From NCBI GenBank assembly GCA_951812955.1, contig OX638340.1, positions 1,632,001-1,696,000 of the forward strand: 64,000 nucleotides of DNA. The letters are read 5' to 3'. Made by a program: the position numbers and the translations under genes. Below are positions 9,803 through 19,466 of the stretch, piece after piece. Below the pieces are notes generated by a model that worked only from the letters and a program-made list of their open reading frames with translations, was not told the DNA's origin and made no database searches. Numbering within the stretch: position 1 is the stretch's first letter; each line of letters begins with the position of its first letter. The DNA is from an uncultured Gemmatimonadota bacterium (GTDB lineage: Bacteria > JAAXHH01).

Positions 9803-10699
9803 ATGGAAAACGGGTACTTCAAGGGTCATGGACTGGGCAACGAATACATCGTGCTGGACCCGGCGGAACTGACCTTCACGTTGACGCCCGGCCGCATCGC
9901 CAGGATATGTGATCGCAAAAAGGGCATCGGAAGCGACGGCGTCCTGACCCTCGAAGAATCCGGTTCGGCAGACTTCGGCGTGCGGATCTGGAATCCGGAC
10001 GGCAGTGAGGCGGAAACTTCAGGTAATGGCCTACGTATTTTCGCCTGCTACCTGCATGCCACTGGTCGGACGCGAAAGAAGTCGTTCACGGTGGAAACGC
10101 CTGGAGGTATCGTCCGCGTCGAGACGCAGCTTGATTCGGCCGGAGCGGTGTGTGCAGCGACTGTGCACATGGGCAGGGCGACCTTCAAGCCTGAAGCGCT
10201 GCCCTGCACACTCGAAGTCGACGAACTGATCGAGCAACCGATCAGTGTCGCCGGCGAAGCGCTGACTTTCACCGGGGTAAGCGTTGGTAATCCCCACTGC
10301 GTCGTGTTCCATTCCAGGGGCCAGCAGTGGAGCAGCGACGATTTACTGCGTCTGGGTCCCGTACTTGAAACCCACCAGATCTTCCCGCAAAGAACCAACG
10401 TCCAGTTGGCCGAACCCACTGGTCCCCACTCGATCCGCATCCTGATCTGGGAACGCGGCGCCGGCGAAACGCCTTCATCCGGATCATCGGCCTGCGCGGC
10501 CGCAAGTGCGGCGGTGCGTATGGGAATTGTTACCTCTCCGGTGACCGTCGAGTCAGCCGGCGGAACATTGCTTGTAGACATGGATGAGAAGTTCTATCTG
10601 AGACTGGCAGGACCTGTTGCGGAGATGGCTCGGAGAACGTTCAATAAGGCGATGCTACGCGCGATTCTGGACACGGATCATGAGCCACAAACAACTTGA
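9803..10699 (+). CDS. dapF: Diaminopimelate epimerase
   Basis: GNEYIVLD near the N-terminus, the ETSGNGLR segment, and the SVGNPHCVVF catalytic-Cys motif. Confidence 0.85.
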   Translation: MENGYFKGHGLGNEYIVLDPAELTFTLTPGRIARICDRKKGIGSDGVLTLEESGSADFGVRIWNPDGSEAETSGNGLRIFACYLHATGRTRKKSFTVETPGGIVRVETQLDSAGAVCAATVHMGRATFKPEALPCTLEVDELIEQPISVAGEALTFTGVSVGNPHCVVFHSRGQQWSSDDLLRLGPVLETHQIFPQRTNVQLAEPTGPHSIRILIWERGAGETPSSGSSACAAASAAVRMGIVTSPVTVESAGGTLLVDMDEKFYLRLAGPVAEMARRTFNKAMLRAILDTDHEPQTT

Positions 10700-10748
10700 C
10701 ACGTAGGCGTCTGCGCTCTATATTTTGTTGCTGTTGTAATCGCCATTT

Positions 10749-10820
10749 TCCTCGGTAGCTCAATGGCAGAGCGGGTGGCTGTTAACCACTAGGTTGTTGG
10801 TTCGAATCCAACCCGAGGAG
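10749..10820 (+). tRNA. tRNA-Asn (anticodon GTT)
   Basis: I folded it by hand. Acceptor stem TCCTCGG/CCGAGGA, D-arm GCTC-AATGGCA-GAGC, anticodon loop CTGTTAA, T-arm GTTGG-TTCGAATC-CAACC. CCA is not encoded. Confidence 0.85.
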
Positions 10821-10938
10821 TAAATCATTCTCCGCAAGTTGTAGAGTCTCAGACGATCAGGAAATACCCTGATCTTCTTACCAAGCCCCACTCACTCTAT
10901 AACTGTTCCCACGATGCTCGCCGCTTCTTAACGCGACC

Positions 10939-13725
10939 TCACTCCTTGTACTGATTCACCACAGGCACCACCGGCACGGTCCTCCTTGCCGCTACCCGCA
11001 CCAACGACGCCAGCCCCGTCGGAGCGTCTTCGCCGACGCTGAACTGATCGACGTCCTCATCTGCACTCCCCACCGGCGATGCAATCCCAGTCTCCGCGTT
11101 CAGTGTGTACAATTTAGCGGTCCATCCGCCGGTCATGTACAACACGCCTCTGTGTGAGGTCAGCCCGGTCGGCAGGTCTTCTCCGACACCGAAGTCAGTC
11201 ACGTCGCCAACGGGTGAGGCGGCTCCCGTGGCAGGATTCAATACGTATAGTCGGGCCGAGTTGTAACCGACCATGAACAGATCGCCCCCGTGGGACGCAA
11301 GACCGAAGGGATGGTTTTCGCCGGCCCCGAACTCCACGGCATTACCGACCGGGGCAGCTTTCCCTGTCACGGTATCCAGCGCGTAAAGTCTGGTATTCGT
11401 CCCGCCGGCCATGTACAGCGTTCCGTTGTGGGACGCCAGACCCATGGGCTGCGATTCGCCGACTCCGAATTCCACGGCGTCCCCGACCTGCGTGGCCACG
11501 CCCGTTTCCGGATCCAGCGTATACAGCGCCGCGTTCCATCCTCCCGTCATGTACAAAACGCCGTGATGCGCGGCCAGTCCGTACGGCTGGTACTCGTCGG
11601 CGTCGAATCGAACGGCCTCTCCCACAGGTTTGGCTTCCCCGGTATTCGGATTCAGTCTATACAACTGGTCGTTGCCTTCACCCACCATGAGTAGACCTTC
11701 GACGAAGCCGGCTTCGTCGCACCGCGATCCCATCCATTCATCCAGGCCATCGACCCAGGCTAGCAAAGCTGGGGTGCTCGGTAAGCACAGGCCGTCGTTC
11801 TCGTGAAAGAGAAAATCGGTGACATCGCTTAGACCCGAGAAAGTCTCGGGTACAGTACCTGTGAACTGATTGTCATGGAGATACATCACCTCCAGGTCGT
11901 CGAGTATTCCCAGTTCAGGTGGAACGGGACCGGATAATTCGTTATCGAAAAGGTACAGCGCTTCGAGATCCTGGAGCCGTCCGAATTCGGCAGGAATAGA
12001 CCCGGACAACTGGTTGTTATGGAGATAAAGAAACTCGAGATTGGCGAGTTGACTCAGTTCTACAGGTATCGGTCCTGTTAGCTGGTTTCCATAGAGACTC
12101 AGCAGGCGCAGCTTGGGTTGATCACCAAAGACTGCCGGGATCTCGCCAGAAAGATTGTTGGAGTTGAGGTACAGAATCTCGAGATTGTGGAACTGACCCA
12201 GTTCGGCAGGAATCGGTCCGGACAGCTGATTCTCATCAAGATCCATACGTTCCAGGTTTTCCAGTTGACCCAATTCAACCGGGATCCCTCCTGACAGTTG
12301 GTTCTGCCACAGGTTCAGAAATTCAAGGCTTTCCAGGTTACCCATCTCCGGCGGGATTGAACCGGTCAGCTTGTTCGTATACAGGTGCATTATTTCCAGA
12401 TTATACAACTGCCCCAGTTCGGCGGGTATCGATCCGGTAAGTTCGTTTCGTTGCAGGCTCATGAACTCGAGATTGGCGAGTTGACCCAGTTCCGGCGGGA
12501 TCGAACCGGTCAGATCATTGCCAGCCAGGTCCAGCCGCTTCAGGCTGGTCAATTGCCCAAGGTCTCCGGGGATCGATTCCGACAGGCTGTTGTTACCGAG
12601 ATTCAACACCTCCAGGTAGGCAAGCGAAGCGAGTTCATCTGGAACGGTTCCGGAGATTTCGTTGGCGCCAAGATCAATGATCCTGAGCTCGTCGAGCTGG
12701 GAAAGTGCGACTGGGATGGCGCCCGATACCTGGTTGTGCGCCAAATCCAGTTCCCTCAGCAGGGACAGATTGACGAGGTTTCCGGGCAACCCGCCCGACA
12801 GGTTGTTCGTCCGCAGTTCAAGCCGTATCACCCGTCCGTTGGCGTCGGTCGTCACGCCGTGCCATTCGGTCAGGGGTTCTTCACTCAGCCAGTTCTCGCT
12901 TTCATTCCAGTTCGAACCATCCAACGCATGGTAGAAATCGACCAGCGTGGTACGTTCGCTTTTATCGATGGCCACCGTTACGGGCACGGTGACCGAAACC
13001 TCGCCGGAGGAAACGGTAACGACCGCGGTACCGCTCCCCAGGGCCGTAATCGTGCCGTCGTTGCTCACGGTTGCCACCGACTCGTCGCTGATTACCCATT
13101 TCACCGCCGTGCCATCGATGACCTGGCCGTTTTCGTCGAGAACGGAGGCCTTAAGACTTACTGACTCGCCGGTCGCGGTCAGCGTTACCGACGGAGGTTC
13201 AACCAATATCGTCCGTGCCGACTGGGATACGGAAACCGTAGACTTTCCCTGTTTCTGTCCCACGGTAGCGGTAATATCAGCCGTACCGTTACTGAGCGCG
13301 GTGACGAGTCCTCCACTGGTCACGGATGCAACCGAAGGATTCCGGCTCGACCAGACTACCTCGTGTCCCGAAATCGTCGCGCCGGTCTCGTCCTGCACCT
13401 GTACGGCAAGTTGCAGGGACTGGCCGATCGCAGTCAGCGTAACCGTGTCAGGAGTCACGACAACGGCAGCCGGACCGGATGACCTGGTGGGACCGTCCTT
13501 GCCGCAGGAGGCCAGCGCAAACAGTGCGAGGAAGCAGAAGAGACGGATCCCATTCCTACGGGTGGAATTCCATCGACCGGTGTTCTTTTTGACCCGTAAC
13601 CTGCTGGCAGATGGAGATGACAGCGATTTGCGACCGCAATGACGGTGAAAATGCATATGAGAATACCTTTTAAAGTTTGGTCTATGATTGGCTGCGCGGG
13701 CGAATCGGGCGCTCGATGTGGACAC
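10939..13725 (-). CDS. Large lipoprotein/surface protein: bacterial Ig-like (Big_2-like) domains, then ~16 plant-type leucine-rich repeats, then 6 copies of a ~45-aa C-terminal repeat
   Basis: Lipobox-like LFALASCG. Ig-like segments (VTPDTVTLTAIGQSLQLAVQV...). A 24-aa LRR unit repeated (LxxLxxLxLxxNxLSGxIPxELGxLxNL). C-terminal repeats of the form YTLNxETGxAxPVGxAVEFGVGExxPxGLASHxGxLYMxGG. The true start is probably inside the listed ORF; there is no ATG immediately before the signal peptide. Confidence 0.7.
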   Translation of the reverse strand: MSTSSARFARAANHRPNFKRYSHMHFHRHCGRKSLSSPSASRLRVKKNTGRWNSTRRNGIRLFCFLALFALASCGKDGPTRSSGPAAVVVTPDTVTLTAIGQSLQLAVQVQDETGATISGHEVVWSSRNPSVASVTSGGLVTALSNGTADITATVGQKQGKSTVSVSQSARTILVEPPSVTLTATGESVSLKASVLDENGQVIDGTAVKWVISDESVATVSNDGTITALGSGTAVVTVSSGEVSVTVPVTVAIDKSERTTLVDFYHALDGSNWNESENWLSEEPLTEWHGVTTDANGRVIRLELRTNNLSGGLPGNLVNLSLLRELDLAHNQVSGAIPVALSQLDELRIIDLGANEISGTVPDELASLAYLEVLNLGNNSLSESIPGDLGQLTSLKRLDLAGNDLTGSIPPELGQLANLEFMSLQRNELTGSIPAELGQLYNLEIMHLYTNKLTGSIPPEMGNLESLEFLNLWQNQLSGGIPVELGQLENLERMDLDENQLSGPIPAELGQFHNLEILYLNSNNLSGEIPAVFGDQPKLRLLSLYGNQLTGPIPVELSQLANLEFLYLHNNQLSGSIPAEFGRLQDLEALYLFDNELSGPVPPELGILDDLEVMYLHDNQFTGTVPETFSGLSDVTDFLFHENDGLCLPSTPALLAWVDGLDEWMGSRCDEAGFVEGLLMVGEGNDQLYRLNPNTGEAKPVGEAVRFDADEYQPYGLAAHHGVLYMTGGWNAALYTLDPETGVATQVGDAVEFGVGESQPMGLASHNGTLYMAGGTNTRLYALDTVTGKAAPVGNAVEFGAGENHPFGLASHGGDLFMVGYNSARLYVLNPATGAASPVGDVTDFGVGEDLPTGLTSHRGVLYMTGGWTAKLYTLNAETGIASPVGSADEDVDQFSVGEDAPTGLASLVRVAARRTVPVVPVVNQYKE

Positions 13726-17816: not shown

Positions 17817-19466
17817 CTACCGACAAAAGCAGGAGGTTTCAATGGGGATGTCGGCGCGGGCCTTCGCGAACTCAAGCCTCTGTCGCACCAAGCGAAGCTC
17901 GTTGGCCTCTCCGGCGTGTTCGACGCATTCGACCAACCCCTGGAGCGCCCACACGTTGTCGGGATGCTGGCAGCAGCGCGGCAGGCTTCCGTCGTAGCCG
18001 AGGTCAGAGCGGAACACGGCTTCGGCCTCTTCGAACATGCCCTGCTCGGCGAGGAGGGCGCCCAGGGCGTGGCGGGGGGGATGCATCCAGGCCCAGGGCT
18101 CGGTGTAGTTTAGCGCGTCGTCACGCGAAACGGCAAGGCGCAGGCTGGCGAATGCGCGATCATAGTTCCCTTTTCGGTATTCGAGCTCGCCGTCGAGCAT
18201 GGCCGCGCCGATTCGGAGCATGTCGCGCACCGTGTTGCTGAGGAAGATCGCGTCCTCGGGAATGGCGGCCGCGGCTTTGTCGAACACGTCGCGTGCGGCT
18301 TCCGCCTCTTCGATATGGCCAAGGGCCGCGTGCGCCACACCCTGTCCGTAAGCATGCATGGCGGTTTCGATCGGACGAAGAGATGACTCGCGCGGCCTGG
18401 GCGATGCGATCAGATCATGCCAGCGGCCGAAGCGAACCAGGACGTGTGTGCTCATGGCGCTGTAGCCGTCGAGGATGGAGGCCATGAAAGGCGCGCTCCT
18501 GGCGATCAACTCGGGCGTAGCCATCGCGCGGATCCGGTCGGCGGCATGGGTGGCCTTGCCGAGTTGACCGAGAAACATGGCCGTGTACATATAGAGATGG
18601 AGATCATGACACCGCATAGTGGTGTAGAAGTTCTGGTCTCCGGCATAGGCGAGGTACCTGTCGTCGGCGTAGATCGCCCGTTCGCTCTGAACCACCGATT
18701 GCGCCCAGTCGCCGCAGAGCACGTATATGTGCGCCGACATGTGTTCCAGGTGGCCGGCGTCGGGCAGTAGGCCGCGCAACAGGTCGGCCGCTTTGAGCCC
18801 GCGTTCCGGCATAGGCGACATTTCCAGCATATGGATGTACAGGTGGCAGATGCCCGGATGGATCGGGCCGTTTCGCTCGATCCGCTCCATCCAGGCGTCC
18901 ATCACCGGCAACACCTCGCTCGTGTGGCCGCGCGGGTTGGGCTGTCCGGTCTGCAGGTTCCAAAGCTGGCGCGGCGTGCAGTTCATCGCCGCATCGAAAT
19001 AGAGAGCGACGATATCTGCGTCATCCTCAAACGCCTGGGACGTGTCGCGCATCGCATCTGCATAGTCCCAGTGCCAGGTGTCCAGCACTTCCGTGTCGCG
19101 CTCATCGCCATTCCGGTACCGCGTCGCCAGCGCTTGGATGAGGGCCTGCTCGGCCAGCGTCCCATCGCTGGCCAGCGACATCGCTTTCGTCACCGCTTCA
19201 TGGCAAACCGGCAGGGTCTGGGCGATTTCGGCTTCGGTGTACCTGATCCAAGCGCGGTTGTAGTGGGGTCCGTTCGCATAGGCGATCCCCCACCAGGCCA
19301 TGGCGCAGGAGGGGTCCGCGTCCGTCGCGCATCGGAAGCAGGAAACGGCTTCTTCGTGATTGAAGCCGTAGGTCCAGTTCAGGCCGCGATCGAACCAAAG
19401 CTGAGCGGCGTCCGACTCCGTCGAGATTCTGCGGGACCAGCTTCCGAGATCGAAATCATAGCTCAT
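17817..19466 (-). CDS. TPR-like repeat protein (TTC38-like family), function unknown
   Basis: 549 aa, helical repeat composition. Resemblance to the TTC38 family is from memory only. Confidence 0.5.
   Translation of the reverse strand: MSYDFDLGSWSRRISTESDAAQLWFDRGLNWTYGFNHEEAVSCFRCATDADPSCAMAWWGIAYANGPHYNRAWIRYTEAEIAQTLPVCHEAVTKAMSLASDGTLAEQALIQALATRYRNGDERDTEVLDTWHWDYADAMRDTSQAFEDDADIVALYFDAAMNCTPRQLWNLQTGQPNPRGHTSEVLPVMDAWMERIERNGPIHPGICHLYIHMLEMSPMPERGLKAADLLRGLLPDAGHLEHMSAHIYVLCGDWAQSVVQSERAIYADDRYLAYAGDQNFYTTMRCHDLHLYMYTAMFLGQLGKATHAADRIRAMATPELIARSAPFMASILDGYSAMSTHVLVRFGRWHDLIASPRPRESSLRPIETAMHAYGQGVAHAALGHIEEAEAARDVFDKAAAAIPEDAIFLSNTVRDMLRIGAAMLDGELEYRKGNYDRAFASLRLAVSRDDALNYTEPWAWMHPPRHALGALLAEQGMFEEAEAVFRSDLGYDGSLPRCCQHPDNVWALQGLVECVEHAGEANELRLVRQRLEFAKARADIPIETSCFCR

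Follow-up and report, generated by a model that had tools for sequence, protein, structure and literature searches.

A predicted lipoprotein joining plant-type leucine-rich repeats to a modelled five-bladed propeller, encoded at a conserved locus of a sponge-associated Latescibacterota lineage

The gene and its architecture

The 64,000-nucleotide stretch of contig OX638340.1 analysed here (positions 1,632,001 to 1,696,000, hereafter the window) carries on its minus strand, next to a tRNA-Asn gene, a gene whose protein combines a lipobox, immunoglobulin-like (Ig) domains, plant-type leucine-rich repeats (LRRs) and a C-terminal repeat module modelled as a beta-propeller. The original prediction described it as a 928-aa lipoprotein. 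The open reading frame (ORF) listing confirmed the 928-aa minus-strand ORF at 10939-13725 and the lipobox L-A-S-C is present, but the conserved start gives a shorter protein. A start-codon scan found only two start codons before the hydrophobic segment, the GTG of codon 1 and the ATG of codon 24, and in the orthologue alignment all related genes begin at the equivalent of codon 24, with the motif M-(H/Q/L)-(F/C)..H. Hence, the likely product has 905 aa, and the mature chain after the lipobox Cys74 has 855 aa. The features of the locus are presented in Table 1.

When AlphaFold was applied to the mature protein, it returned a pair of Ig-like beta-sandwiches, a cap helix and an LRR part whose 15 strands are evenly spaced, with a predicted local distance difference test score (pLDDT) of 90-99. 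In the full-length run the Ig and LRR parts were well modelled and the propeller reached a pLDDT of only 30-50, with C-terminal homologues misaligned in a mixed multiple sequence alignment. The statements made below on propeller structure are taken from a separate AlphaFold run on residues 646-928.

Two to three Ig domains had been proposed. Big_2 domains are indeed present, but in the model their number is two. In Pfam, Big_2 (PF02368) scores 70.7 bits against a cutoff of 22.8 over two stretches, the best of which lies at residues 88-164, and Big_1 matches residues 187-264. The second beta-sandwich is modelled with strands at 99-178 of the mature chain.

Tandem Repeats Finder (TRF), applied to the DNA, reported no tandem repeat matching the protein repeats, its sole report being an unrelated 9-bp repeat at 10957-10977. 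Given that the protein repeats are invisible to TRF at the DNA level, they appear to be old repeats and not recent duplications.

Table 1. Features of the gene and its immediate surroundings, in window coordinates.
Feature	Position	Strand	Basis
Most likely coding sequence, 905 aa, from ATG codon 24 to stop	10939..13656	-	ORF listing, start scan, orthologues
N-region, h-region LFCFLALFALAS and lipobox, residues 24-74	13504..13656	-	sequence reading, conservation
Big_2 Ig-like domain 1, residues 88-164	13234..13464	-	Pfam; AlphaFold beta-sandwich, pLDDT ~90
Big_2/Big_1-like Ig domain 2, residues ~172-262	12940..13212	-	Pfam, AlphaFold
LRR N-terminal cap, residues 263-301	12823..12939	-	AlphaFold pLDDT >90, paralogue consensus
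Fourteen 24-residue LRRs, residues 302-637	11815..12822	-	register table, Pfam, PDB matches, AlphaFold pLDDT 96-99
Truncated 15th LRR and C-cap/linker FLFHENDGLCLPSTPALLAWVDGLDEWMGSRCDEAGFVEG, residues 638-677	11695..11814	-	conservation, modelled helix
Five-bladed beta-propeller, residues 678-907	11005..11694	-	five ~46-aa repeats, dedicated AlphaFold model
Conserved C-terminal tail VRVAARRTVPVVPVVNQYKE, residues 908-928	10942..11004	-	orthologue alignment, pLDDT <50
tRNA-Asn(GTT), neighbour outside the gene	10748..10821	+	ARAGORN
Spacer from tRNA-Asn to the stop codon of the gene, 117 bp	10822..10938	.	sequence, locus comparison

The plant-type LRR solenoid

The register table places 14 LRR units in a single 24-residue register over residues 302-637, and the AlphaFold strands recur every 24 residues. 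The unit consensus is LxLxxNxLSGxIPxELGQLxxLEx, the mean pairwise identity between units is 44%, and Asn6, Gly10 and Pro13 of the unit are nearly invariant across units and orthologues. Pfam recognises the region as LRR_1 (E = 2.4e-45) and LRR_8 (E = 2.4e-33). In the PDB, the top sequence matches all come from ectodomains of plant LRR receptors, beginning with GSO1 (1.7e-151), RGFR (6.8e-150) and FLS2 (5e-131), followed by PEPR1, MIK2, HAESA, ERL1 and BRI1 down to PSKR1. The first ~40 entries are all plant LRR receptor kinases (LRR-RKs) or receptor-like proteins, and the first non-plant match, Leptospira LIC11098, comes after them. Register, consensus and these matches bear out the predicted 24-residue plant-type unit. 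The proposed count of about 16 repeats has to be lowered: the 14 full units are followed by one truncated capping unit (FLFHENDGLC...), which makes 15 beta-strands in total. In repeats 7-14, many of the concave positions hold Tyr, Trp, Phe or His.

Ahead of the first strand, the N-terminal cap (sequence ERTTLVDFYHALDGSNWNESENWLSEEPLTEWHGV) consists of the helix ERTTLVDFYHAL followed by NW..W.GV. AlphaFold places the helix at 182-194 of its model, together with a cap strand, at pLDDT >90. This layout resembles the plant cap. Residues 255-301 contain no cysteine, and LRRNT_2, the plant N-cap with a cysteine pair, gave no match to the protein even at E <= 10, only LRR_10 matching weakly. The same cap recurs in the paralogue consensus DRxxLxxxYxAxxGxxWxxxxNWLxxxPLxxWxGV, obtained by aligning 23 Big_2-LRR proteins.

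The linker, propeller and tail

Between solenoid and propeller lies a linker, NDGLCLPSTPALLAWVDGLDEWMGSRCDEAGF, which is nearly invariant and carries Cys647 and Cys669, each conserved in 21 of 21 sequences. The linker segment is 73-93% identical among orthologues and, in the selection analysis described below, has the lowest dN/dS of any part (0.11). The C-terminal AlphaFold model has a helix at its residues 16-29, within the linker. We infer that the two cysteines form a disulfide stabilising the C-cap.

The C-terminal repeat LYxL(N/D)xxTG occurs five times, at residues 688, 734, 780, 826 and 872, within a blade consensus of about 46 aa, LYxLxPxTGxAxPVGxAVxFGxGExxPxGLASHxGxLYMxGG. The first four 46-residue units are 50-59% identical to one another. 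The run on residues 646-928 yielded a model with pLDDT 87 and a predicted template modelling score (pTM) of 0.84, in which twenty strands form five four-stranded blades. Velcro-style closure of the ring comes from the pairing of PTGLAS, the last strand, with the N-terminal strands LLMVG / QLYRL / AKP. The suggestion that the C-terminal repeats might build a propeller is thus supported by the dedicated model, whereas the six copies originally counted become five repeats and five blades, with the first blade closed by the C-terminal strand.

No established family accounts for the module at the domain level. DUF4394 (PF14339) reaches a summed 31.0 bits against a cutoff of 29.6 and Kelch_6 a summed 29.2 bits against 25.3, no single stretch passing in either case. 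The DUF4394 match spans only profile positions ~36-67 of a model of ~230 positions, which is about one blade and short of domain-level membership. In the window protein, Pfam gave no NHL or YVTN match at E <= 1 and no match to Glu_cyclase_2 (PF05096). The modelled five-bladed fold is shared with glutaminyl cyclases, at 18% identity. Foldseek against the PDB returned YWTD, NHL and designed "Pizza" propellers at template modelling (TM) scores of ~0.5. Over the PDB and viral structures alike, its matches were only generic six-bladed or Kelch-like propellers at TM ~0.5, which gave no functional lead. The profile of the propeller family found nothing better in the PDB than the NHL propeller of SOQ1 (E = 0.003), and a PHROGs search with the propeller domain gave no informative match.

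After the last propeller strand, residues 908-928 follow the pattern V(S/A)(A/P)RRxVPVV..(I/F)KE in nearly all orthologues and are modelled as disordered. This tail could act as a sorting or interaction signal.

The N-terminus and lipobox

The lipobox L-A-S-C, in which Cys74 follows the h-region LFCFLALFALAS, is kept in 21 of 21 related sequences, orthologues and paralogues taken together. On motif inspection, RRNGIR-LFCFLALFALAS-C fits the lipoprotein pattern [LVI][ASTVI][GAS]C with an h-region and a positively charged n-region. Judging by this motif, the mature protein would start with Cys74 in lipidated form.

At 13507-13656 (residues 24-73), an unusually long basic stretch of ~37 aa, rich in His, Ser and Pro, precedes the h-region. 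Its presence is conserved among orthologues but its sequence is not (18-74% identity), and in L005 it is enlarged by a repeated ATRN..P.QK motif. A twin-arginine (RRN) stands directly before the h-region in most orthologues, though not in all. It was considered as a twin-arginine translocation (Tat) signal, which was rejected because several orthologues lack the twin-arginine.

Orthologues, synteny and selection

The orthologue scan, run with a single-protein query over one genome per species, returned 24 loci. The same three-part protein is present in 20 of them (L002-L021), with 77-93% identity in the propeller; L021 ends inside the propeller. Among the complete copies, the LRR block is always 390 residues long and the blades always number five. 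These loci carry the NCBI labels "Candidatus Latescibacterota", "Gemmatimonadetes" or plain "bacterium".

The flanking genes of the window (the Na+/H+ exchanger and/or tRNA-Asn/DapF) are kept in 17 of the 20 orthologue loci. In 16 of these 17 (L002-L006, L008-L011, L014-L016, L018, L020, L021) the exchanger is found upstream, at 73-92% aa identity; the contig of L017 begins within the gene. Downstream, tRNA-Asn is found in ten loci (L002, L004-L006, L009-L011, L016-L018), as well as in the metagenome contig L001. DapF follows it in eight of the ten, and then, where the locus reaches, an outer-membrane beta-barrel protein and a carboxylate-amine ligase. As for the remaining loci, L012 and L013 have only the TPR gene in common with the window, in inverted orientation, and L007 is too short for synteny to be judged.

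Additional copies exist in some genomes. Tandem duplicates occur in L008 (8090-13470), L010 (8039-13467) and the metagenome contig L001 (5716-11083), the latter with the same synteny as the window. The genome with the syntenic L018 (CBDBLQ010000002) has a dispersed second copy, L019 (L019:7979-10753), with 58-76% identity across the three domains (tblastn). In L001, a contig of ENA ERZ25069412 with 8x coverage, each of the tandem copies falls into several ORFs. They were considered as pseudogenes, but assembly indels are more likely, since this contig also has dapF in two pieces (189 + 105 aa).

The tRNA-Asn(GTT), the only tRNA in the window, is convergent with the gene, its 3' end lying 117 bp from the ORF stop (ARAGORN), so the adjacency reported in the original prediction is correct. 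Also as reported, no integrase is found among the neighbours, which are ordinary chromosomal genes such as dnaK, dapF and gltBD. Within the window there is no second copy of the tRNA 3' end. The GC content of the gene (0.573) and that of its third codon positions (GC3, 0.656) lie at z -1.9 relative to the 32 other genes of the window. The neighbouring dapF matches the gene in GC3 (0.659), and by synonymous-codon distance the gene stands at z +0.45. The proposal that DNA had been acquired at the tRNA is contradicted by these values and by the related loci. Ordinary composition and conserved synteny, which the original prediction itself had named as speaking against acquisition, are what was observed: codon usage is unremarkable and the flanks are shared by most orthologue loci. 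By that standard, the gene is core to its clade and was not recently acquired.

For the ratio of nonsynonymous to synonymous substitution rates (dN/dS), 21 sequences were considered, 20 from L002-L020 plus the window, and medians were taken by part. The median is 0.26 for the Ig domains, 0.16 for the N-cap, 0.26 for the LRRs, 0.11 for the linker and 0.18 for the propeller. With dN/dS at 0.11-0.26, purifying selection acts on all domains, and conservation is highest in the propeller and linker (73-93% identity). Within the LRRs, the x positions of the concave face (2, 4, 5 and 24 of the unit) have a dN/dS of 0.32 and the other exposed x positions, on the convex side (7, 11, 14, 18 and 20), one of 0.55. 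The concave face being more constrained than the other exposed residues argues for a conserved ligand rather than an arms race. Diversifying selection on the concave face, as in plant R proteins, was also considered and was rejected, given that its value is below that of the other exposed positions.

The wider families of the parts

With the full-length protein as query, at least 5,569 bacterial proteins match at E <= 1e-30, which corrects the earlier impression that plant-type LRRs are uncommon in bacteria. Domain content was taken from the best 120 of these matches. Most of them have Big_2 together with LRR domains, and the few with a named source come from metagenome-assembled genomes (MAGs) of Gemmatimonadota (including Ca. 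Palauibacter) and Chloroflexota. None of the 120 covers the propeller, the maximum query coverage being 68%. The 23 Big_2-LRR relatives that were aligned share a CGxxP consensus at the N-terminus, several Ig domains and the LRR cap described above. From these alignments, the window protein appears to be a member of a large surface-lipoprotein chassis, set apart by its C-terminal propeller.

The C-terminal domain alone retrieved only 29 proteins in a word-indexed search. At E <= 1e-3, an exhaustive search with the propeller profile yielded 5,745 cluster representatives, of which 1,218 remain at E <= 1e-10 and 388 at E <= 1e-30. The idea that the repeat is a new family therefore holds in part: no named and characterised propeller family passes domain thresholds (neither NHL nor YVTN), but the repeat is far from rare. 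Relatives reach 46-85 bits with DUF4394 and 29-54 bits with DUF6923, as partial matches like that of the window protein, and the literature search found no paper that mentions either family. The propeller repeat is common but uncharacterised. Small secreted five-repeat proteins, e.g. P0217, belong to the family. LRRs occur in only one of the 174 members retrieved, the orthologue fragment P0005, and the LRR-propeller fusion looks specific to the orthologue clade.

The family also includes giant proteins of 2,000-7,842 aa (P0150-P0192) with up to 16 separate propeller stretches, and in P0182 the propeller repeats are joined to collagen triple-helix repeats. A Nitrospirales MAG (OZ243124.1) contributes three loci (L022, L023 and L024) with near-identical long arrays of the repeat, at ~45-52% identity. 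These arrays resemble P0002/P0003 (~10 blades, no signal peptide) and look like a repeated element or a multi-copy gene.

The host lineage

Three of the orthologue loci come from sponge MAGs that the supplement of PMC8163846 assigns to Latescibacterota according to GTDB: SB0665_bin_8 (VXTP, L020) and IRC1_bin_16 (L017) from the sponge Ircinia ramosa, and APA_bin_41 (L021) from Aplysina aerophoba. In the tree of that paper, the three fall in one tight clade with RHO- and COS-prefixed bins, prefixes that suggest Rhopaloeides odorabile and Coscinoderma matthewsi. Sponge MAGs are reported there to be enriched in LRR, ankyrin, TPR and HEAT repeat proteins, with a high proportion of all repeat types in Latescibacterota and few genomes with classical secretion systems (PMC8163846). 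LRR and NHL repeats have also been reported in sponge Latescibacterota MAGs (PMC12993501), and ankyrin-type eukaryote-like proteins altered amoebal phagocytosis experimentally (Nguyen et al. 2014, as cited in PMC11706023). The window protein belongs to this class in that a eukaryote-type LRR domain occurs in MAGs of a sponge-associated lineage, the source of the window itself being taken from its relatives.

Proposed role and alternative explanations

We consider that, in a sponge-associated Latescibacterota lineage, the protein probably works outside the cytoplasm as a lipid-anchored binding protein, which attaches to, or is recognised by, sponge cells or matrix. It would be exported through Sec, lipidated at Cys74, tethered to a membrane (probably the outer one) and displayed at the surface. 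There the two Ig domains would form a stalk, and the concave LRR face, with its many aromatic residues (Tyr, Trp, Phe and His of repeats 7-14), would bind a conserved protein or peptide ligand. The near-symmetrical propeller would present five FGxGExxP loops as a second, multivalent surface, possibly for glycan or matrix. Together, these parts would let the symbiont attach to the cells or extracellular matrix of the sponge, or be recognised by them, and so help it persist.

A number of points weigh against this role. The exposure of the protein on the outer surface is a guess. Its lipoprotein status is read from the motif alone, with an n-region that is unusually long at ~37 aa, and the Glu/Pro loop motif conserved in the blades might have a structural function only. 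The neighbours (Na+/H+ exchanger, dapF) offer no functional hint. The provenance of the window is taken only from relatives that are 75-93% identical. Furthermore, the scarcity of secretion systems in sponge MAGs (PMC8163846) fits a lipoprotein route but is no proof of host contact.

A bolder version of the proposed role, which we put forward as doubtful, gives the C-terminal module the leading part. The large unnamed family of near-symmetrical five-bladed propellers (~5,700 cluster representatives, with giant, collagen-fused and phage-like members) would consist of multivalent lectin-like or host-matrix binders, joined here to a plant-type LRR as a two-headed adhesin essential for sponge life.

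The alternative that survives best, though we think it unlikely, is a lipoprotein that faces the periplasm and senses or sequesters a bacterial or environmental ligand, such as a peptide signal, a cell-wall fragment or a phage component, with no host contact. The repeat type is similar to that of plant LRR-RK ectodomains, which bind peptides through domains of this type, and the constrained concave face suggests one conserved ligand. Propeller relatives also occur in phage-like proteins, P0006 (phage Ig-domain PHROG) and P0013 (phrog_22523), and the final membrane location is a prediction only. However, there is indirect evidence against it: the protein lacks a transducer domain, its neighbours include no signalling or transport genes, a Big_2 stalk on an LRR chassis is typical of surface adhesins, and the family is expanded in host-associated MAGs.

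It is very unlikely that the propeller is an enzyme, of the glutaminyl-cyclase or another five-bladed hydrolase or lyase type, with LRRs and Ig domains merely directing it to a substrate. The family member P0003 does score 26.9 bits on Pfam Glu_cyclase_2 (cutoff 22.3), but the window protein has no such match and shares only 18% identity with the cyclases, and no PDB sequence match falls below E 0.003, the best being an NHL propeller. Moreover, blades that are 50-59% identical and carry the same loop motif fit the usual pattern of binding modules, not that of one asymmetric active site, and blade number is highly variable in the family, with up to 16 occurrences in giant proteins.

A recent acquisition at the 3' side of tRNA-Asn, as a genomic islet with a eukaryote-derived LRR gene, is highly improbable: although the gene lies next to the tRNA, its GC and GC3 are somewhat low (z ~-1.9), the gene-to-tRNA slot carries variable cargo in relatives and lateral transfer of eukaryote-like repeat genes among sponge symbionts has been reported (PMC8163846), the complete gene is found in 20 related loci, 17 of them with the flanks of the window, no integrase occurs among the neighbours and no repeated tRNA 3' end in the window, the codon distance is z +0.45 with dapF at the same GC3, and all parts are under purifying selection. 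A transfer into the ancestor of the clade is possible; given this evidence, any transfer would be older than the radiation of the clade.

Comparison with known systems

The closest class is that of the eukaryote-like repeat proteins of sponge symbionts (ELPs/ELRs), in its LRR branch, with which the binding protein proposed here shares a eukaryote-type repeat, a repeat-rich sponge lineage and a large paralogous set of Big_2-LRR proteins. Published work on this class consists of domain counts per genome, with tests on ankyrin proteins only, and no description of the window lipoprotein, its fixed locus or its C-terminal propeller was found in the literature.

Plant LRR receptor ectodomains (GSO1, RGFR, FLS2, PEPR1, BRI1) share the 24-residue unit LxxLxLxxNxLSGxIPxxLGxL, with PDB E-values of 1e-151 to 1e-76, and the layout of cap helix, solenoid and cysteine-containing C-cap. 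Unlike them, the window protein has neither transmembrane helix nor kinase and has a predicted N-terminal lipid anchor instead; it also lacks the N-cap cysteine pair, an LRRNT_2 match and the island domain, and it is fused to Ig domains and a propeller. Xanthomonas XopAC, XopAE and XopL and the Leptospira LIC proteins have a similar LRR type, with NCBIfam scores of 112 bits for XopAC, 104 for LIC_11051 and 102 for XopAE. All of them fall well short of the family cutoffs, which are 450-1000 bits, and the LRR segment alone is matched. The window protein carries none of the type III effector domains (Fic, E3 ligase), and its export would be by the lipoprotein route.

For the propeller, the blade motif fits positions ~36-67 of DUF4394, which like DUF6923 is a Pfam family of propeller repeats with no assigned function. 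Glutaminyl-cyclase propellers (3nok, 3mbr) and six-bladed NHL/YWTD propellers have 11-19% identity to the window propeller, which differs from the former in its high internal symmetry and from the latter in blade number.

The class of sponge-symbiont LRR proteins, the presence of plant-type LRRs in bacteria (Xanthomonas, Leptospira) and the Big_2-LRR chassis are already known. What is new is the fusion to a five-bladed propeller from a large uncharacterised repeat family, and the recognition of the gene as a fixed, syntenic and constrained orthologue in a sponge-specific lineage.

Eukaryote-like repeat proteins abound in sponge symbionts, but almost none of them has an assigned export route, ligand or conserved orthologue. 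The gene offers a concrete test case, being single-copy, syntenic and under purifying selection in a defined sponge-specific Latescibacterota lineage. Its plausible lipoprotein export route speaks to the published puzzle of absent classical secretion systems, and its two separable putative binding modules could be used to seek sponge ligands. The analysis also flags a sizeable uncharacterised propeller repeat family, while overturning nothing that is known.

The variable slot and other observations in the neighbourhood

The feature that varies among relatives is the slot between gene and tRNA-Asn, not the gene itself. It measures 0.09-6.4 kb, with 90 bp in L009, 117 bp in the window, where it is empty (10822-10938), and 6.4 kb in L005. 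The cargo of L005 (L005:10760-17130) comprises an AAA_14/DUF4143 ATPase and a 1,400-aa ORF with no Pfam match. L006 (L006:10760-15840) has a UvrD-like helicase with a Top1 zinc ribbon and a zinc-type alcohol dehydrogenase (ADH), and L001 (L001:11110-13845) an ADH and an HTH_3 protein. This cargo may be defence-related.

Upstream of the gene, at 17817-19466 on the minus strand, a 549-aa protein matches TPR_2 at the Pfam cut-off (27.0 bits, with no stretch passing alone). It is present at 85-92% identity in 18 of 20 related loci, inverted in L012 and L013, and may represent another eukaryote-like repeat type in the same neighbourhood. Finally, the plus strand has at 10696-10724 a sigma-70-like promoter close to consensus, TTGACA-17-TATATT (11 of 12 positions), directly upstream of tRNA-Asn and overlapping the end of dapF.

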